In this document: positions 1 through 22,183 of the stretch, piece after piece
How the letters are laid out: each line of letters starts with the position of its first letter
Numbering within the stretch: the first letter of the stretch is position 1
Source of the DNA: Candidatus Thorarchaeota archaeon SMTZ1-45
GTDB lineage: Archaea > Asgardarchaeota > Thorarchaeia > Thorarchaeales > Thorarchaeaceae
DNA length: 22,278 nt
Direction: 5' to 3'
Assembly (NCBI GenBank): GCA_001563335.1
Contig: LRSL01000043.1
Coordinates: forward strand, 1-22,278
The notes under the pieces: generated by a model
The model's database searches: none
What the model was told of the DNA's origin: nothing
The model's input: only the letters and a program-made list of their open reading frames with translations
Made by a program: the position numbers and the translations under genes

Positions 1-388
1 CCTGCGGAGGTTTACTACGCAGTCTGTCGTTGCTCGGCTGGTGCCGACGCAGAGCGTAGTCAGGAGCGTTGAAGTACATTCTCCGGGATGTGTGGATGCA
101 AAATTGTAACACTGACCGTTTGTGCTGACCGAGCTAACCTAGACCAAGCGAGTCTAGGGACACCGGCAGATAGGCAGTTGGGCTGGGGCGGCACACGGCT
201 GACAAGAGATCAGCCGTGACCAATGCTGAGCTCAGAGGCGACGGAAACGTCTCGTTGAGATTAAGGGCATAAGCTCGGCTGACAGGATCCCGAAAAGCAA
301 CGGATCCTGGGTAGAAATACTGGCCTAGCGAACCTCAATATTGCCAATTGCAAGTGATTGAGATGACAAAAAACTTACCCCAGGGGTA
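1..388 (+). rRNA. rrl: 23S rRNA, 5' exon (partial; domain V from ~E. coli 2064 to A2450)
   Basis: P-loop-like GGCTGGGGCGGC (181-192), GGCCTAGCGAAC, and H74 strands CCTGCGGAGGTTT (1-13) / AAACTTACCCCAGG (371-384) that pair, followed by GGTA. Archaeal-type sequence, truncated by the window start. Confidence 0.96.
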
Positions 389-404
389 ATCTCTAGCCGG
401 TCGT

Positions 405-426
405 CAAAAGGCGAGTATAATAAATA
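405..426 (+). promoter_or_regulatory. Possible intron-internal archaeal promoter (BRE/TATA-like)
   Basis: Purine-rich CAAAAGGCGAG followed by TATAATAAATA (416-426), 20-30 nt upstream of GTG 446. Confidence 0.35.
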
Positions 427-445
427 CATCATTGCCGTTTAATGA

Positions 446-1162
446 GTGGAGAAAATGGAACGCTGGCGAATATCAGAAGATGAGGATTTGGAGAAAGAGA
501 ATCTGAAGAAGCCAGAATCTCTGAATCGAAGGTACATTGAACAATTGTTCGAGGGTACAGATCGCATCGCTGAAACAATGCTAGCTAGCGTAAACATAGC
601 CTATCTCGCAGGCATTACTGAAGATGCCCACCTTGGCCAAGGTGGAAAAGAAGGATATGTCTTTGACATCGAATCTAAATCAGAACGATGGCTGACTGAC
701 ATAGTTATGCCTGCACTCAAACTTGAGCTTTCTGAGGAAAAGGAAGTTAAAGTCACACGACGTGGTACCAGACCTGAATATCGTATTCAGGTGTGGGATA
801 AAGATCTCGTTGAAACCCTTCGAGTACTATTCGAAAGGCCTGGAATAGTCCGATTATGGAGTATTCGAAAACAACGAGCATGGGTTCGAGGACTTGCTGA
901 TGCAGAAGGATCAGCAACTCGGAACACAGACAAACAACCACAGTTCAGTTTCTACAACAAAGACTTTGAAAAACTCAAGATTGCAGGCGAAATCCTTGAG
1001 AAAGATGGTGTCCACTTTGGCTTCTACCTACCACAAGGTAGAGATGTGTGGCAAATGTATCTAACAGGTCGCGAGAATCTAAAGCGTTTCCTTGATGGGG
1101 AAGCTTCTGGGGTGAGCCATCCAGAGAAACGTTCACGCTTACTTCAATACCTTGCCGAGTAG
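446..1162 (+). CDS. Intron-encoded two-motif LAGLIDADG homing endonuclease (start GTG 446 or ATG 455)
   Basis: Motifs IAYLAGITEDAHL (degenerate) and AWVRGLADAEGS about 95 aa apart, plus FSFYNKD..KL and C-terminal SHPEKR typical of LAGLIDADG_3-like domains. The ORF fills the intron loop and stops just before the closing stem. Confidence 0.9.
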   Translation: MEKMERWRISEDEDLEKENLKKPESLNRRYIEQLFEGTDRIAETMLASVNIAYLAGITEDAHLGQGGKEGYVFDIESKSERWLTDIVMPALKLELSEEKEVKVTRRGTRPEYRIQVWDKDLVETLRVLFERPGIVRLWSIRKQRAWVRGLADAEGSATRNTDKQPQFSFYNKDFEKLKIAGEILEKDGVHFGFYLPQGRDVWQMYLTGRENLKRFLDGEASGVSHPEKRSRLLQYLAE

Positions 1163-1181
1163 CGCCGACTAGGGACCCTAA

Positions 1182-1575
<394 letters not shown>

Positions 1576-1602
1576 GATCAAAAGTGTGCTTCGCACAGTA
1601 CC

Positions 1603-1670
1603 TAGAGTTGTCCAAGGGTGCTGTAGTAACAGAAAAAGTATCTCCATCCTTTGTTAGTTATTTTTGCATC
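1603..1670 (+). repeat. Intergenic direct repeat, copy 1 (just after the 23S 3' end)
   Basis: TAGAGTTGTCCAAGGGTGCTGTAGTAACAGAAAAAGTATCTCCATCCTTTGTTAG plus a T-tract. 1613-1655 matches copy 5 at 39 of 44 aligned positions. Confidence 0.85.
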
Positions 1671-1888
1671 TCATAGTATGTTATTCTTCTTGATTCTACT
1701 AATGATCGACATCAACACAGGAGAAGGAAGCCAGGTCTTCAGGAGGGATTCCATCCCGGTGATTGTTGACAAAGCTCTTGCTAATTCTACATACCATTAG
1801 AATGTGGGAAGTGGTGACACCAGCAAGGGAAGGGTGGAACATAGGAGTTTTCATCAGTTGAATTCACTCACACGGTGGAAACGGGTTA

Positions 1889-1956
1889 TAGAGTTGTCTA
1901 GGAGTGTATTGTAGAAAAAGCGACCCCCATCCTTTGTGGTTTCATTTTTTGAATTC
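1889..1956 (+). repeat. Intergenic direct repeat, copy 2
   Basis: TAGAGTTGTCTAGGAGTG...TAGAAAAAGCGACCCCCATCCTTTGT plus a T-tract; shares both left and right blocks with copy 1. Confidence 0.85.
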
Positions 1957-2069
1957 AGATGATAGTACTTGCATCTATTCTCCATTGTGAATGAGCAGTT
2001 TCAAACACAACAGGATTGATTAGATGGAATAACCAACATGATGCTGAGGGAGGAATTCTGCGACCACAG

Positions 2070-3269
2070 ATGACTATCACAGGTTTTCTATTGTTTCTCT
2101 TACTTATTCCTCTCGTTTCTCCTATTGCGATTGTTGAAATCAGCTCATCACCTAAAGGAGTTGCAATATACGCGTCAATCCATGACCCAATTGTGATTAT
2201 ATCAGATAGTGATTTTGAGATGCAAGGTTGGCCTGGTAATGGCTCAGAAAACAATCCATATCTGATTGAGGATTTAGAGATTAAGTCTTCGCAGACAGTG
2301 GAAGCATGTATCCAAGTTTCATATACATCAGTCTATTTTATAATCCGTAATTGCACCCTAACTTATGAAACCCTCAATAGTGGGTACTATAAGCCAGATG
2401 GAATTATTCTACATTTGGTGTCTAATGCCCGAATCGAAAATTGCACAATCACAAATTTGAGTAAAGGAATACATTTGCATTTTGTTGAAAATTCAATGAT
2501 AAATTGGAACTCCCTGCGCTTCAACAGAATTGGGACAGTCATCTACGAATCTACAGACTGCAATATTACAGAGAACTTCATCGCTTACAATACTGAAATT
2601 GGCGTATTTTTGGATGGCGAAAGCAACCGAAATCGTATTTTCAATAATACCATTGGCTATAATCAAGCAGACCTAGCCCATGCTGAATACAACGCTCAAG
2701 ATGATGGTCACGACAATCTCTGGGATGACAATAAAACTATTGGAAATGCTTGGAGCGATTACTCTGGTGAGGGCGTGTACAATATCTCTGGATACGCAAA
2801 CAGTGTGGATAGGTTTCCAAGATTAGTACAGTTTGACTTAGCTGGCCCTGAACTTTATGGGGTCACAGACTGGCGTGTGACTGTGTATCCAGGACCTTGT
2901 CCATTCTCAGATCTGACCATCTATGCCTCAGCGCGTGATCAAACTGGAGTTGATGGCGTTTTCATCTTATACAGCAGCTCATTAAATGAAACTTGGACTT
3001 GCATAGAAATGACATATACTCCCACAGAACAGTATCCTGATCGTTACATATTCCATATTGACGGTCCATTCTACTCATTCGACTTCATTCGATACTATTA
3101 TGTCTGGGCAAATGACACTTTAGGTCTTGATTCAACTTCAGAAATGCTTGGCAATTGGAATCATTGCATTGGAGGTCCAAACCCTTTTCCCTTAATTTTT
3201 GGTATCATGATTACAGTCTGCGGAGCAATAGTTGTATCTTTCATAGTTAGTCGAAAAAAGCGCAAGTGA
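2070..3269 (+). CDS. Secreted, membrane-anchored right-handed beta-helix (NosD/CASH-like) protein
   Basis: Hydrophobic signal peptide (MTITGFLLFLLLIPL), GWPGNGSENNPYLIEDL motif, Asn-rich I.NN.I..N...GI.L repeats, NLWDD...GNAWSDY..., and a C-terminal TM helix plus RKKRK. The ORF track starts at TTG 2016; ATG 2070 fits the signal peptide better. Confidence 0.85.
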   Translation: MTITGFLLFLLLIPLVSPIAIVEISSSPKGVAIYASIHDPIVIISDSDFEMQGWPGNGSENNPYLIEDLEIKSSQTVEACIQVSYTSVYFIIRNCTLTYETLNSGYYKPDGIILHLVSNARIENCTITNLSKGIHLHFVENSMINWNSLRFNRIGTVIYESTDCNITENFIAYNTEIGVFLDGESNRNRIFNNTIGYNQADLAHAEYNAQDDGHDNLWDDNKTIGNAWSDYSGEGVYNISGYANSVDRFPRLVQFDLAGPELYGVTDWRVTVYPGPCPFSDLTIYASARDQTGVDGVFILYSSSLNETWTCIEMTYTPTEQYPDRYIFHIDGPFYSFDFIRYYYVWANDTLGLDSTSEMLGNWNHCIGGPNPFPLIFGIMITVCGAIVVSFIVSRKKRK

Positions 3270-3318
3270 AAACCGTTCATTTCATGGGTTTTTAAACTCT
3301 CAATAGCAACAGCTATCC

Positions 3319-3352
3319 TAGAACTATGACCTTCATCCTTTGATGTCTTTTA
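3319..3352 (+). repeat. Intergenic direct repeat, copy 3 (right block only)
   Basis: TAGAACTATGACCTTCATCCTTTG; 21 of 25 aligned positions match copy 4. Confidence 0.75.
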
Positions 3353-3444
3353 CTCATATCTTTAGAAAGTAGTATTCATTCAGTGTACCTTGATGGTAGA
3401 TTTGATTAGAGAACTTACACTATTTTCCATTAGTGGAGTATAGG

Positions 3445-3927
3445 ATGAGATTTTCTTTTGTATTAATACTGGCATCACTAACAATTGTGTCAGCATTGCT
3501 ACTACCGATGGGCACGGTGGTGGAAGTAGTAGCCTACTTTGGCCATAGCGGTGTATATTTTTCGGGTCTTATTGATTTGTCAATTTTTGGATTGAATTCC
3601 CTATGCCGCTCGTTTCCTGGAATTGAATTTGTTTTCATATTGTGGATATTCGTTGCATCACTTCAAGCATTAAACCTACTCGCACTTTCTCGTGGAAAGG
3701 TTCCTCTAATAGTGGCATGGTTGGTCTTTCTGTCAACACTCATCGCCCAACTATACATCCCATCATTGGTTCTTGACTTAGCTCTTCCGGTTCCACTTCT
3801 AACAAGCCGTACGTGTGAGCCAAATATCATCTGTTCATGGCTTGCAGCTCTTTGTCTAGTCGCAATCAGTTTTGGATACATACTGAAAGACAGCAGTAAC
3901 CAGTGGCTAAGAGTAGGATATGGCTGA
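3445..3927 (+). CDS. Hypothetical multi-pass membrane protein (~4 TM)
   Basis: Several hydrophobic stretches; ATG 3445 preceded by GGAG (alternative GTG 3433). Confidence 0.75.
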   Translation: MRFSFVLILASLTIVSALLLPMGTVVEVVAYFGHSGVYFSGLIDLSIFGLNSLCRSFPGIEFVFILWIFVASLQALNLLALSRGKVPLIVAWLVFLSTLIAQLYIPSLVLDLALPVPLLTSRTCEPNIICSWLAALCLVAISFGYILKDSSNQWLRVGYG

Positions 3928-3947
3928 TATGAGTCCCATACTGTCTA

Positions 3948-4010
3948 AGTTGTCTATGTTTCTTATAGAACCAGCGACCTCCATCCTTTGTTAGCGTTTT
4001 TTATGCATTC
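3948..4010 (+). repeat. Intergenic direct repeat, copy 4
   Basis: AGTTGTCTA...TAGAACCAGCGACCTCCATCCTTTGTTAG plus a T-tract; right block matches copy 2 at 23 of 26 positions. Confidence 0.85.
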
Positions 4011-4073
4011 ACAATGTTCACATTAAACTGTAAGTTTATCTCCCTTCTAGTCTAATTAAAAACCGGTAGGGAT

Positions 4074-4373
4074 ATGAGTAGTCACCAAGAAGAGATCGAA
4101 CCTACTCAGCCATCGAAGAGGAAACGCATTGGCAGGATTTTCTTTTTATTGGGACTTGCACTTGTCGTGATTGGATTAGTTTCCTCAGTTTTAATTTCCA
4201 TAGTTTCAGCTTATTCGGGTTCAGTTCCTCTCATTGCTAATTTCGAGTATATCCAGTTTCTTCTTGTTATAAGTGGCGTATTATTGATGCTTGCTGGAAT
4301 CGCTACAGTTCTTCTTCCTGAAGGTCTAGCAAAAGTTGGAATCTGGAGTATACAAACAGGACCATATCATTAA
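4074..4373 (+). CDS. Small 2-TM membrane protein with C-terminal LPEGL.K.G.WS.QTGPYH motif (paralogue A)
   Basis: Basic N-terminus, two hydrophobic helices, clear similarity to 6143-6436. Confidence 0.85.
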   Translation: MSSHQEEIEPTQPSKRKRIGRIFFLLGLALVVIGLVSSVLISIVSAYSGSVPLIANFEYIQFLLVISGVLLMLAGIATVLLPEGLAKVGIWSIQTGPYH

Positions 4374-4481
4374 GATAAATCCTGCTTATTGTTATGCTAG
4401 TTTTACCTCCTAAATTAGAATTCGTTATAGAACATGCTATCATGAAGTTTTCAAAGAACTGACTATGGACAATCCAAACTT

Positions 4482-4540
4482 CAAGGGTGCTGTAATGACA
4501 AGAGAAAGTATCTCCATCATTTGTTGTCCTTCTTTTCATT
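4482..4540 (+). repeat. Intergenic direct repeat, copy 5
   Basis: CAAGGGTGCTGTAATGACAAGAGAAAGTATCTCCATCATTTGTT, nearly identical to copy 1. Confidence 0.85.
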
Positions 4541-4619
4541 GTATCTTTAATGTTTAGCATAGATTTTTCATCTTTTTAGCTAGATGTTGATTGAATAAAC
4601 TAGAATTGGGATTCACACA

Positions 4620-5456
4620 ATGTTTCGGAGAGTTCTGTTGTTCCGGAACTTAACAGATAATATACCAAAGAACATTGGACTGTACTCAGTGGGAGTAATG
4701 CTTCTCTTCTTGTTTCGAATAACAATTGACCTATTACAAACTCTATTGGGACTACTTGCTTTCCTAATTTCTTACTCCTCGATTTATGTGCTAAACGATT
4801 TATTTGATGTTGATGATGACAAGAAGGACAATAGGAAAGCCCATAGAAAACCTTTAGCTAATGATGTTGTCAAAGAGGAAGATGCGATACGGATCTTCGC
4901 CTCATTCTTACTTCTGGGTTTAGTGCTCTCTGTTATTCTCAATCTACTATTCTTCTGTGTTGTTTGCTCACTGGTTTTCACTAACATAATCTATTCTCTT
5001 CCGATGTCACACATCAGGAAGAGGAGTTTTGAGGAAGGGAGTCCAAGAAGTTTGAAGCATACAATACTCAGTTTGCCTTTGGTTCTCCTTATGCAACTAT
5101 TGAAGATCTTTCTTCCATGGACTCTGAGTACAGAGGTGATGCAATTCCCTGTGCTATTTGCAATCGGATTTTCACTTCTCTATGTTATAATCTTCAAAGG
5201 CTACAAAGAATATCGAACTATCGGAGAATCCGTGAAGCAAACACCGTTTTTCCTTGGTTTCGCGATTATTGTTTTTGTCATATCAATGAGCATGTATCCC
5301 GAACCACTAGTTCAAGCATCAATAGTTCTCTACATATTATTAGGAATCTGGTTCTTCCGGAACTCACGTCTCACTGATAGAAAGGTCCTCTTACTAAGCC
5401 CAGTGTATATCCTTCTAGGAATCGTTGTTCTGTTCTTTCTGATATCAAACATTTAG
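4620..5456 (+). CDS. UbiA-superfamily intramembrane prenyltransferase-like protein
   Basis: YVLNDLFDVDDDK...KAHRKPLA matches the first Asp-rich UbiA motif (ND..D...D...RPL); NIIYS motif; about 8 TM helices. Confidence 0.82.
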   Translation: MFRRVLLFRNLTDNIPKNIGLYSVGVMLLFLFRITIDLLQTLLGLLAFLISYSSIYVLNDLFDVDDDKKDNRKAHRKPLANDVVKEEDAIRIFASFLLLGLVLSVILNLLFFCVVCSLVFTNIIYSLPMSHIRKRSFEEGSPRSLKHTILSLPLVLLMQLLKIFLPWTLSTEVMQFPVLFAIGFSLLYVIIFKGYKEYRTIGESVKQTPFFLGFAIIVFVISMSMYPEPLVQASIVLYILLGIWFFRNSRLTDRKVLLLSPVYILLGIVVLFFLISNI

Positions 5457-5994: not shown

Positions 5995-6142
5995 GATTAG
6001 GTTTCTACCACAATCTGACTAGAGTTTTACGATAGCTGTAGCTTAGAAAGGTCATGACAAAATTATTGTTATGAGCACAACTCATGGTCTGAATTTAGCT
6101 CAATGTTTATCTCAATTTGTGTGTAATTTACTTGGGCAAATC

Positions 6143-6436
6143 ATGACAGAATCTAAAGACAATAAGAAAATCTCAGCGAAACGATTGATTGGTAAGATTG
6201 GACTAGCTATAGGATTAATTGCCATAGTCTTTGTAATAGTTTTCGGGATGCTTGCATCATGGGTCGCTGCATATGGTGGTTCTATAGAATTAGTTCGTAT
6301 GTATGAGGTTTTCTCAGCCCCAGTTTTCGTCTTCGGTATTCTGTTCTTATTGGGTGGTCTAGTAGCCATATTTCTGCCCGAAGGCCTGTCTAAAGATGGT
6401 CTATGGAGTATGCAGACCGGACCATATCATAGATGA
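6143..6436 (+). CDS. Small 2-TM membrane protein (paralogue B)
   Basis: Ends LPEGLSKDGLWSMQTGPYHR. Start moved from 6071 to ATG 6143 to match the length of paralogue A. Confidence 0.85.
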   Translation: MTESKDNKKISAKRLIGKIGLAIGLIAIVFVIVFGMLASWVAAYGGSIELVRMYEVFSAPVFVFGILFLLGGLVAIFLPEGLSKDGLWSMQTGPYHR

Positions 6437-19905: not shown

Positions 19906-20679
19906 TTACCTCTCTTGTTGCTGAAGAATCAAGGCATCTCTAATCTCACGAAATGCCTCCAGTGTGCTCTCATTGAATATTCTCTTTCTTTTTCTTGGTT
20001 CTCCAATTGTTTCAATTGGAAGTGGAGCTCGACCAAATCCTCGAAGCTCGCGAAGTATGAAGTCTCTTAGTTCCTCATGGAACTTTACACCCTCTATATT
20101 CTCTTGTGCTGTACCACCTTTCATGAGTCTTTGAAGGATTATCGCAATGAGTCCACCACCTTGCATAATCGAAGACTTTGCTGCAGTTTCAACTTGTATC
20201 GTTCCAATCTTAAAGAGTCTGTCAAAGACGCCTCTTCTCGTTCGCAAGTTGGTCACAGTCCGAAATGGTACATGCCTTTGTGTGATTGTGATAATCCCTT
20301 TTCTTACGAAAATCTCTGGACTAACCTCCCTCTCCCAACTGGCTAATGAATAGTAAATTCGTTTGACATAGATGTACGTGTAGATTATCCAAAGCAGAAA
20401 TATTGCAGCTGCTACAGTCCAATAGTACAGCGTGACAGTGCTCCATCCAAGTATAATGAAGACTTCAGTAATTTCAACTAATGTTAGGACAAAGTCTGTC
20501 ACAATCGGGTGGCTGAAAAAAAGTAAGCTTATGGTGACCCAGATGAAGAACAGGATGATAAACACCCTCAGCCATTTCTTGTAGAGAAAGGCATTGTCTG
20601 GATGGAACATTCTCCCGCTAATTACCTGTTCCATAGGTGGTTTAATGACCCGTCCCTCTTCTTGAGCCATTTGTTGCAT
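19906..20679 (-). CDS. Membrane protein with bacterial PH (bPH_2/YdbS-like) domain, paralogue 3
   Basis: TM helices then VRKGIITITQRHVPFRTVTNL...RGVFDRLFKIGTIQVETA. Confidence 0.88.
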   Translation of the reverse strand: MQQMAQEEGRVIKPPMEQVISGRMFHPDNAFLYKKWLRVFIILFFIWVTISLLFFSHPIVTDFVLTLVEITEVFIILGWSTVTLYYWTVAAAIFLLWIIYTYIYVKRIYYSLASWEREVSPEIFVRKGIITITQRHVPFRTVTNLRTRRGVFDRLFKIGTIQVETAAKSSIMQGGGLIAIILQRLMKGGTAQENIEGVKFHEELRDFILRELRGFGRAPLPIETIGEPRKRKRIFNESTLEAFREIRDALILQQQER

Positions 20680-20682
20680 TCC

Positions 20683-21411
20683 TCATTCTCTGTCTTTTTT
20701 CAGTAAATCGCGAATCTCTCGAAGGACTATCAATATCTCACTCTCAATGCTACCAGGCTCTACTACAAAGGTTTCATCATCTTCAGGATGAACTACCTCT
20801 GTACCAGTTACATATGGATCTTTGAACTTCCTGAGTTCCAAGAGGATAAAATCTCTCAGTTCATTATAGAATGTCAAGCCTTCTAATTTTTCCTCTGCTG
20901 ATTCAAAAGAGCCAGCAGATCCGCTTGCAGTTTCAACCTCGATTGAGCCAATACCAAAAAGACGGTCGAAAGGTCCTGCAACACTCTGGATGTTTGTTAT
21001 TGTTCTAAACGGTACGTGTTTTCTTGTTATGTTGATAATTCCTTTTTTCACATAGATTTCTGGCATCGTTTTGCCACTTTTCGCAAGCACAGAATATTCG
21101 AAGGAACGGATGTAGATGGGATAAATAATCAGGTAAGGTATCAAAATACAACCCGTGATGATCCAATACCAAAAATTGAACGGGAACCATATGAGGTCAA
21201 AGGTTGATGCTATACCCGCTGGGTTTCCTGTTATTATACCCACAAGCCACAGGACTAGGAACAACGAACCGATAATTGTCACCCACAACATGATCGCGCT
21301 GAAGATGCCTATGAACCAGTTCTTGTTTCGGAAGTACTTTGATGGCTTGAAGACCTTTCCTCGAGCAATCTCTTCCATTGGTGGTTTGATAACTTTGCCT
21401 CTACCTGACAT
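20683..21411 (-). CDS. bPH_2 domain membrane protein, paralogue 2
   Basis: VKKGIINITRKHVPFRTITNI...GPFDRLFGIGSIEVETA; start refined to ATG 21411 by alignment with paralogues. Confidence 0.88.
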   Translation of the reverse strand: MSGRGKVIKPPMEEIARGKVFKPSKYFRNKNWFIGIFSAIMLWVTIIGSLFLVLWLVGIITGNPAGIASTFDLIWFPFNFWYWIITGCILIPYLIIYPIYIRSFEYSVLAKSGKTMPEIYVKKGIINITRKHVPFRTITNIQSVAGPFDRLFGIGSIEVETASGSAGSFESAEEKLEGLTFYNELRDFILLELRKFKDPYVTGTEVVHPEDDETFVVEPGSIESEILIVLREIRDLLKKDRE

Positions 21412-21418
21412 GTTTCTC

Positions 21419-22183
21419 TCATCTCTCTTTCTCAAGTCTGCTATCAATCTTTTCTAATACATTTCTAATCTCACGAAGCGTTATGAGTATCTCGTCATCA
21501 AGACTATCACTCAAACGAGGAACTGGTTCATCCCTAGGATGAACGAACTCTGTTCCAGTGACATAAGGATCTCTGAATCGTCTCAACTCATGAAGAATGA
21601 AATCACGCACCTCTTCATAGAAAGTTATACCCTCTAGTTTTTCCTCAGGGCTTCTACCCCCTTGAGCACCACCAGAATATCCAGCTGTTTCAATTTCAAC
21701 CGTGCCTATTCCAAATAATCGGTCTATTGGACCTGTCCTACTTGCTATGTTAGTGATTGTTCTAAATGGTACATGTTTCTTCGTCACATTGATCAATCCT
21801 TTCTTGACATAGATCTCTGGCATTGTTGTTCCGGATTTCGAGATGACACTGTACTCAAAGTTGCGAACGTAGAGAGGGATGCCAATCAATATTGGGAGGA
21901 ACCAGAATATTGATGAAGCCGCATACCAGAAGTTGACCGTTGGTAGCCAGTCATAGAAGATTATCCAAAAAATTGGTATCCAGTTTGGAGTGCCAGAGTC
22001 TGTTGCTTCAATCAAAGATCCTAATGCAAGACAACCTAACAGACAAAGCCAGAGAAATAACCAGATGATGGCTGCTATAAAAAACTCTTTGTAATAGAAT
22101 CTGCGGTCTGGTTTGAAAACCCTACCAGCTGTCACATCTTCCATTGGAGGTTTTATTACTACACCACGACTACTCCGTTCCAC
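21419..22183 (-). CDS. bPH_2 domain membrane protein, paralogue 1
   Basis: VKKGLINVTKKHVPFRTITNI...GPIDRLFGIGTVEIETAG; GTG start abuts the upstream stop. Confidence 0.88.
   Translation of the reverse strand: MERSSRGVVIKPPMEDVTAGRVFKPDRRFYYKEFFIAAIIWLFLWLCLLGCLALGSLIEATDSGTPNWIPIFWIIFYDWLPTVNFWYAASSIFWFLPILIGIPLYVRNFEYSVISKSGTTMPEIYVKKGLINVTKKHVPFRTITNIASRTGPIDRLFGIGTVEIETAGYSGGAQGGRSPEEKLEGITFYEEVRDFILHELRRFRDPYVTGTEFVHPRDEPVPRLSDSLDDEILITLREIRNVLEKIDSRLEKER

Follow-up and report, generated by a model that had tools for sequence, protein, structure and literature searches.

Behind the 3' end of the 23S ribosomal RNA (rRNA) gene of Candidatus Thorarchaeota archaeon SMTZ1-45 lies an array of small accessory units, delimited by five same-strand copies of one repeat. 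We analysed it in a stretch of 22,278 nucleotides (nt; hereafter the window), which is the whole of contig C43 and opens inside this archaeal 23S gene. The repeat is the 3' arm of the leader–trailer stem in which precursor 23S rRNA (pre-23S) is processed, followed by a run of Ts, and the copy closest to the gene, REP1, is the working one. The array is probably an additive gene-insertion island, anchored on the tail of the 23S gene and its trailer and built mainly by homologous recombination of the host, and the 23S gene end seems to act as a hotspot of gene insertion.

Such an island would take up new DNA through recombination in the 23S tail and trailer. This DNA would bring its own copy of both, restoring the rRNA end and the working arm at the gene, while the displaced copy would remain downstream as a same-direction ‘spare’ arm. 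Repeated events would stack units, of which there are four in the window and from none to at least six in relatives, and spare arms may later decay, be cut by insertion sequences or recombine with one another. Host homologous recombination, anchored on the highly conserved 23S tail for its homology, would be the likeliest enzyme; we infer the direction of events, the circular or linear intermediates and the recombination enzyme.

The repeat is a pre-23S processing arm

Copies of the repeat lie at 1604-1670, 1890-1952, 3295-3358, 3947-4006 and 4475-4538 (REP1 to REP5), with CCATCCTTTG cores that are exact at 1644, 1927 and 3981 and carry one mismatch each at 3333 and 4514, which bears out the five co-oriented copies and the core positions given in a first-pass annotation made from the sequence alone. 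With up to one mismatch allowed, the core 10-mer occurs 7 times in the window versus 2.17 expected, and 0/100 shuffles gave 7. A profile built from the five copies and run over the SMTZ1-45 assembly (3.54 Mb, 119 contigs, 87.7% complete, 5.8% contamination) matched those five alone (E 1.2e-11, 2.3e-11, 4e-11, 1.1e-8 and 3.2e-6), the next-ranked match having E = 1. The exact 10-mer is found 18 times genome-wide, with common flanks only at the three places on contig C43. A genome-wide regulatory motif or a miniature inverted-repeat transposable element, both entertained earlier, is rejected because the profile matches only the five array copies. A motif scattered through the genome, which had been named as a result that would count against an array, is thus not seen in this genome; some relatives have copies away from the 23S gene.

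REP1, the native 23S trailer (1580..1670, + strand), consists of a hairpin box, a TAGAGTTGTCC box, the core GTATCTCCATCCTTTG and then the T-run, and is conserved together with the 23S end at 84-95% across the genus. Counted from 1604, it begins 24 nt beyond the 23S end that Rfam places at 1579, close to the roughly 30 nt first estimated. The four spare copies are likewise on the + strand. REP2 (1889..1952, nhmmer E 2.3e-11) has its left side truncated by the end of an insertion sequence and is 93.9% identical to the native arm of a relative, genome G010 (G000:1889-1937 versus G010:520-568). REP3 (3295..3358, nhmmer E 3.2e-6), with the core TCATCCTTTG, is the most decayed. REP4 (3946..4008, nhmmer E 4e-11) starts directly after the stop codon of unit 3, and its ‘accagcgacctCCATCCTTTG’ form is also present in G016 after a gene for a protein with four transmembrane (TM) segments, the homologue of unit 3. 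REP5 (4473..4540) belongs to the REP1 subtype, agreeing with REP1 at 39/44 positions (88.6%, as reported at first), and forms an old border ahead of a UbiA gene. The T-tract ascribed to every copy is indeed there, TTTT following the core within 14 nt in 5/5. Likewise, the reported lack of attC-like palindromy holds, as an inverted-repeat scan of 1500-4700 found no arm pair within any spare copy; REP1 alone has a short GTGTGC..GCACA hairpin, which is part of the rRNA trailer. A search of 1560-4700 against Rfam (E<=5) returned only two chance-level matches and no RNA family.

In archaea, the leader and trailer of pre-rRNA form a stem that is cleaved at a bulge-helix-bulge motif, with circular pre-rRNA as a product. 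Genome G014, for which Rfam finds a fully assembled 23S gene, has a leader and trailer predicted to form a duplex of 64 intermolecular base pairs (bp; -95.4 kcal/mol), including a perfect 15-bp helix, AGAGGAUGGAGGUAC/GUAUCUCCAUCCUCU, over the repeat core. The 5' end and leader of the SMTZ1-45 23S gene are on another contig (G000:C86:1-412, minus strand), the middle of the gene being unassembled. With this leader, REP1 forms 62 intermolecular bp at a free-energy difference (ddG) of -31.8 kcal/mol, compared with -9.9 +/- 3.3 for shuffles (z -6.6). REP2 to REP5 pair with it mainly through the core helix, with ddG of -17 to -25 and z of -2.4 to -3.1 (for REP2, -18.6 and -2.5). Extended leader–trailer complementarity, by which a pre-23S processing stem is recognized, was thus found for both REP1 and G014. 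The leader pairing in these two cases identifies the repeat as the 3' arm of the processing stem with a T-run behind it; the T-run probably ends transcription. A terminator or processing signal had been listed as an alternative to a gene-capture array, and that alternative also holds: the repeat is an rRNA processing arm and, with its T-run, the probable terminator signal, as leader pairing in G014 and in SMTZ1-45 itself indicates for the arm. REP1 resembles the known archaeal stem in forming a long leader–trailer helix around the 23S; what differs here is the presence of extra, unpaired copies of the arm downstream.

The spare arms are under relaxed constraint. Across the genomes compared, the CCATCC motif is intact in 10/10 native arms (those on a full 23S end) versus 17/27 spare copies, and a T-run follows the arm in 9/10 versus 20/27, counts in which a few ‘spare’ copies at contig starts, and the one at G001@1369, may be native.

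A variable locus with breakpoints at the repeat

When positions 1300-4700 were compared by BLAST with 40 relatives, the 23S end and REP1 were conserved in the genus (84-95%) and nothing behind them was. Between the 23S gene and a flavin-reductase backbone gene, content differs in each of 18 same-genus loci and the window, so that gene order downstream of 23S, the comparison by which the first-pass annotation proposed to judge the array, is not conserved. Repeat copies number from one per locus (G005, G006, G010, G017, G024 and G041) to seven (G002), all in the same direction. For example, in G010 only a single trailer separates the 23S gene from UbiA, the window's units all being absent, whereas the units of G002 occur on both strands and G014 and G001 harbor multi-gene units. 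The locus thus behaves as additive islands do, holding different content at the same place in different relatives and growing by addition. Its cargo in relatives is of the kind usual in flexible islands and includes surface proteins of the leucine-rich-repeat and beta-helix types, toxin systems (HepT/MNT and PIN), restriction-modification genes, GNATs, methyltransferases, ATP-binding cassette transporters and many unknowns.

Many of the spare copies in relatives carry part of the 23S gene itself, namely its last 23-60 nt, in three places in G002, two in G012 and also in G022. An order-wide census of 87 genomes with a 191-nt tail-plus-trailer query gave matches in 62/87; 24 of these 62 have 2-9 matches, mostly partial ones that take in approximately the final 25-65 nt of 23S and the first ~35 nt of trailer. 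Other genera also have tail copies (nine in G092, nine in G094, seven in G093 and six in G049), and in loci taken from eight multi-copy genomes the arrays are spaced at 0.9-7 kb. In a phylum-wide search with the Thorarchaeota query, single matches were found outside the family among the best three candidates per genome. Copies also sit mid-contig, on large contigs, among core genes (tRNA synthetase, PolX, ferritin/Fur), at G001:C15:12077-12232 and G092:C84:9617-25070.

Pairwise comparisons place the edges of insertions at the repeat. G006 and G017 share 88% identity over 23S and trailer; their homology stops exactly behind the T-run and is regained two genes further on. Between G012 and G014, whose flanks are 92-94% identical, the former has an 806-bp insert made up of an arm's right portion, a gene for a HepT toxin and a 115-amino-acid open reading frame (ORF). 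This insert is flanked by a 58-bp direct duplication of the last 24 nt of 23S and 33 nt of trailer; here, the insert lies between direct repeats of an RNA-gene 3' end, and the gene itself is restored. Relative to G010, the window has an extra 1666-4555, bounded by the ends of REP1 and REP5, with homology resuming at 4556. In all three comparisons, the breakpoints coincide with the repeat, as the proposal of an array predicted. Moreover, the DNA homology of unit 3 to G016 extends over 3329-4002, from one core to just past the next.

One unit appears, from its identity pattern, to have been moved or exchanged recently. Between G012 and G014, a block comprising spare tail, arm and two genes has an identity of 94.5-95%, compared with ~67% for the flanking protein genes and 75% for the next-best relative. 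The first ~50 nt of this block carry variants specific to G012, the recipient type, and a crossover thus lies in the tail or hairpin part. Mosaics are seen elsewhere as well: a ‘tgacct-core-atgtcttttt’ block is common to REP3, G002@5538 and G004@2098, which have three different left parts, and the three copies of G012 share lineage-specific variants of tail and hairpin. Furthermore, spare tails do not start at one point of 23S, their left ends being spread over about 15-75 nt of it. Together, mosaics and scattered ends are more in keeping with homologous recombination and gene conversion than with one fixed crossover.

For the window's own units, a recent transfer was considered and rejected, as their best DNA matches are 64-78% and protein identity is at or below the backbone level. 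Neither does composition argue for a foreign origin: the GC (guanine plus cytosine) content of the array is 35-41% versus 42% for the genome, a shift too small to be used.

Mechanism, rival explanations and known systems

Pfam searches of 24 window ORFs found no integrase, resolvase or DDE transposase, in line with the integrase-free window described at first, and the same searches of 170 ORFs from relatives' arrays (41, 37 and 92) found none either. Among 97 family-less ORFs compared with PHROGs (93 from relatives' arrays and 4 from the window), the sole mobile-element match was a TnpB-like ‘transposase’, and 92/97 had no match at all. No identifiable mobile element is tied to the units, TnpB elements occurring in only a few arrays. 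A whole-genome search, which is a lossy one, gave no PF00589 protein in the 87.7% complete SMTZ1-45 genome; it found PF00589 in 8/28 genus genomes and PF00239 in 8/28, and among the nine array-bearing ones (G000, G001, G002, G004, G012, G013, G014, G016 and G022) PF00589 in 0/9 and PF00239 in 2/9 (G001 and G014). A 21-nt word from the 23S tail, taken as a possible viral attP, had 0 matches in viral_contigs, and a metagenome scan with GTATCTCCATCMTTTGTTR yielded 60 loci, among which re-scoring by profile and BLAST left no true repeat.

Several results weigh against an island built by host recombination at the 23S tail. Proteins that arrays of different species share are 40-62% identical, compared with 66-75% for the backbone; since these cassette proteins have diverged as much as the backbone or more, most of the array must be old, and no insertion event was caught in the act. 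Contigs of four sequencing runs (X1-X4) hold no well-supported form lacking a unit, although contigs cannot show rare forms; the sole intra-array joint, 3351->3632, has one side of 25 nt and comes from a single run. The tail signature rests on relatives, as 0/4 spare copies in the window carry 23S tail. Simple insertion at the rRNA gene does not account for tail-copy arrays far from any assembled 23S (G092:C84, G094:C19 and G001:C15); either the units travel onward or entire arrays have been relocated. The six single-repeat genus genomes still differ in the content adjoining the trailer. Leader pairing, tried as a test of native versus foreign arms in G012, did not discriminate, all three arms pairing with the leader about equally (ddG -38 to -42). 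Finally, the whole-genome family search missed even the window's own 23S (RF02540), and many array ORFs match no family, so a recombinase of an unrecognized family is possible.

With these points set against the breakpoints, regenerated rRNA ends and mosaics, we still regard the additive island built by host recombination as probable. The gene-capture array put forward in the first-pass annotation is upheld in its variable units, in breakpoints that fall in the repeat and in the regeneration of the rRNA end, all of which the comparative data support; an integron-like machine is not, the evidence favoring ordinary homologous recombination with slow turnover. A bolder generalization, which we offer tentatively and hold to be rather doubtful, is that the Asgard 23S end is a recombinase-free capture platform. 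Each unit would bring a replacement tail and arm, so that rRNA maturation survives; arms would be interchangeable between species, DNA breaks made by TnpB–omega-RNA elements that have the arm as their guide-side flank may stimulate exchange, and rRNA-processing sequence with host recombination alone would arrive at an integron-like outcome.

Among the rival explanations, a hidden integron-like or tyrosine/serine-integrase-like system comes closest, although we judge it unlikely. It would use a recombinase encoded elsewhere, an att site in the 23S tail or trailer and small circular cassettes. One gene per unit and co-directional repeats in the window are what such a system would produce, the 58-bp duplication in G012 resembles an attL/attR pair, and the cargo of toxin-antitoxin, restriction-modification, GNAT and unknown genes is reminiscent of integrons and islands; an enzyme of a new kind could hide among the ORFs that PHROGs leaves unmatched. 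However, no PF00589 or PF00239 protein lies in or beside any array examined, the distribution of the two families over array-bearing genomes is as given above, and the genomes that do have PF00589 mostly have 0-2 tail copies. The spread of left ends over ~15-75 nt, mosaics with several junction positions, spare copies free of inverted repeats and the genes on either strand in G002 also count against it.

Somewhat less likely again is that spare copies are kept as working terminator, RNA-processing or insulator modules against read-through from the strong 23S promoter, and were duplicated along with genes. All five window copies retain the T-run and the core helix that pairs with the leader, the window genes all run with 23S, and the spare arms of G012 pair as well as the native one. 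Yet CCATCC is lost in 10/27 spare copies versus 0/10 native ones and the T-run in 7/27, REP2 to REP5 pair much less well than REP1, an insertion sequence has cut REP2 and opposite-strand units exist. Moreover, spare copies hold 23S coding sequence, which has no role in termination.

The element that cut REP2 raises a further explanation. IS200/IS605-family TnpB elements carry an omega-RNA (reRNA) at their right end. In the window, an IS200/IS605-type remnant occupies 1701..1888 (+ strand) and comprises the last TnpB-like codons and a structured RNA of ~120 nt that is omega-RNA-like; its right end, ...GGGTTA, abuts the TAGAGTTGTC box of REP2, and it is because of this that REP2 starts where it does. 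The stretch 1701-1888 overlaps the C-terminus of TnpB-like genes in loci L016-L019 and on SMTZ1-45's own contig C89, where the gene is intact. The element is multicopy (in 18/28 genus genomes, with up to 28 copies), homology ends in ...GGTYA in all copies, and RNAalifold on 28 copies predicts 30 pairs, 15 of them with compensatory changes. Rfam has no match at E<=1 for 1701-1888, the best being STnc490 (E 1.6, 18.4 bits versus a gathering score of 56). The window keeps just the last TnpB codons, with a full homologue at C34 (42% identity), and at the homologous locus of G015 the element has an intact C-terminal part of TnpB (the contig starts inside the gene; amino acids 212-550) and the same flank. 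In G001, a third copy borders 23S at about window position 1405. Judged from these matches, the interval is the dead right end of a TnpB insertion sequence that lost its gene. Like characterized elements, it has a structured RNA which shares sequence with the 3' end of a TnpB-like gene, stops at the right end and is multicopy; unlike them, it is a stump without an intact TnpB gene. The ~220-bp orphan that had been counted as a cassette is hence withdrawn as one. Further members of this family in SMTZ1-45 are at C89:47852-47988 and C34:21467-22606. Its copy number is very uneven in the genus; ten genomes have 0 copies, and the maximum of 28 is in G015.

Exchange could accordingly be nuclease-driven, an IS605-type TnpB with the TAGAGTTGTC box or the 23S tail as guide-side flank cutting naive repeats and repair producing duplications and swaps. 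This we consider very improbable. Besides the abutting right ends in the window, G015 and G001, TnpB-like genes lie within the arrays of G014 and G001; against this, only 3/28 sampled copies touch a tail or repeat, most arrays examined lack the element, and the window copy has lost TnpB.

An assembly or binning artefact, with collapsed repeats or chimeric joins in a metagenome-assembled genome (MAG), has negligible probability: the contig starts inside 23S, its 1369|1370 junction is unsupported by run contigs and the bin has the completeness and contamination given above, but 1542-4657 is covered by an independent Logan contig of run X1 that shows 0 differences, X2-X4 contain identical pieces (because one X1 contig covers the array without differences, it is not a join made by the binner) and the same architecture is found in dozens of separately assembled genomes.

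The additive island can be set beside three kinds of known system. Islands at the ends of transfer RNA (tRNA) and transfer-messenger RNA (tmRNA) genes are textbook knowledge. Integrase-dependent islands and proviruses accrete in tandem at such 3' ends, the insert replacing the end of the gene and leaving a direct repeat. The 23S array shares with them a replacement copy that keeps the gene intact, the direct repeat left behind and repeated use that leads to arrays; it differs in that an integrase is missing from every array examined, units go down to one gene and left edges are not fixed. Integrons, which comprise IntI, attI and attC cassettes and have been reported from archaea, also have one-gene units in the same direction, a recurring site beside a fixed platform and similar types of cargo. 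In contrast to them, there is here no IntI and no attC-like palindrome, genes face either way in relatives and the site derives from an rRNA processing arm.

The closest described system is the additive flexible islands at tRNA ends in ‘Ca. Methylopumilus’, which contain repeatedly occurring copies of the final 20 bp of tRNA-Lys (PMC10872708). These islands likewise combine a fixed locus with variable content, same-direction repeats of the end of a stable-RNA gene, mostly unknown or accessory genes and a range from nothing to many genes. Set against what is described there, the Thorarchaeota array has a 23S anchor, a repeat that is mostly transcribed trailer and measures ~60-150 nt rather than 20, an archaeal host and insertions without a mobile-element gene. 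Full-text literature searches, supplements excluded, returned nothing on rRNA-tail arrays, and the retrieved passages of PMC8813620 likewise hold nothing; an rRNA gene end as an island site, with a processing arm as recurring border and no integrase, was thus not found in the literature searched.

If general, the arrangement would provide a simple rule for the place at which accessory genes such as surface proteins, toxin-antitoxin pairs and restriction systems enter Asgard genomes, and would explain why contigs of these MAGs break at rRNA genes. It suggests that the cell's most conserved DNA has a second role, as a homology anchor through which genes pass between species. It also carries a warning for annotation, as orphan ‘23S fragments’, and likewise intergenic motifs conserved behind rRNA genes, would be scars of an insertion process and not new RNAs.

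The 23S gene, the unit genes and their neighborhood

The content of the intervals is as first described (genes for a beta-helix, a 4-TM and a 2-TM protein, with UbiA behind them, each on the + strand), with Pfam and ORF analysis in agreement. The three gene units of the window (3/3) are on the + strand and have one gene each. Unit 2 (2070..3269, + strand, in an ORF open from 2016) encodes a NosD/right-handed beta-helix surface protein (Pfam NosD 1.3e-13, Beta_helix 3.5e-9) whose N-terminus carries a signal-like segment and whose C-terminus carries a TM anchor; its homologues occupy other array positions in G013, G018 and G019 and are 40-53% identical in amino acids. Unit 3 (3445..3927, + strand) encodes the 4-TM membrane protein, which is of no known family (no match in Pfam or PHROGs), and is the first unit behind 23S in G016 and G004. 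Unit 4 (4074..4373, + strand) encodes the 2-TM protein of 99 amino acids, with only sub-threshold Pfam matches; it is a paralogue of ORF 6071-6436, the two forming one family in clustering. Both paralogues end in ...LPEGL.K.G.WS.QTGPYH, and the family is present in 14/19 mapped loci, sometimes right behind a repeat copy. The UbiA-family prenyltransferase gene (4620..5456, + strand, Pfam UbiA 7.7e-16) comes first behind the single trailer of G010, has a repeat behind it in G002 and G014 and is lacking at the G005 locus. By eye, no TATA boxes could be called between the repeats and start codons.

The 3' part of the 23S gene occupies 1..1579 (+ strand; Rfam RF02540, 413.8 bits, model 2167-2987) and is interrupted by a LAGLIDADG intron at ~390-1180 (+ strand), whose ORF (446-1162) has a LAGLIDADG_3 domain. 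G014, G005 and G017 lack this intron. The intron-less joint 387->1181 is present in contigs of 4/4 runs, so that the samples contain 23S alleles or species with the intron as well as ones without it. Compared with all relatives, ~100 nt of 23S are lacking at 1369|1370, and run contigs carry on past 1369 with canonical 23S (...GGTACGAGAGGAAC, the sarcin-ricin region); the gap is probably an assembly deletion in the contig and not biology. In G014 (locus L032, 1-4860), the 4.8 kb upstream of 23S contain an RNase PH gene but neither a 16S nor a tRNA gene, and the 23S gene appears to be a solitary one with TATA-like promoter boxes of its own.

Two further observations concern neighboring proteins. 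The arrays of G014 (L023 6780-12416) and G001 (L025 2233-7938) contain a gene for a protein of 1879-1902 amino acids with no Pfam or PHROGs match, which adjoins a TnpB-like gene and a weak HEPN-like ORF in a three-gene arrangement that differs between the two genomes. At the far end of the window (19906-22183, minus strand), three tandem paralogues of ~255 amino acids each have a bacterial PH (bPH_2) domain.

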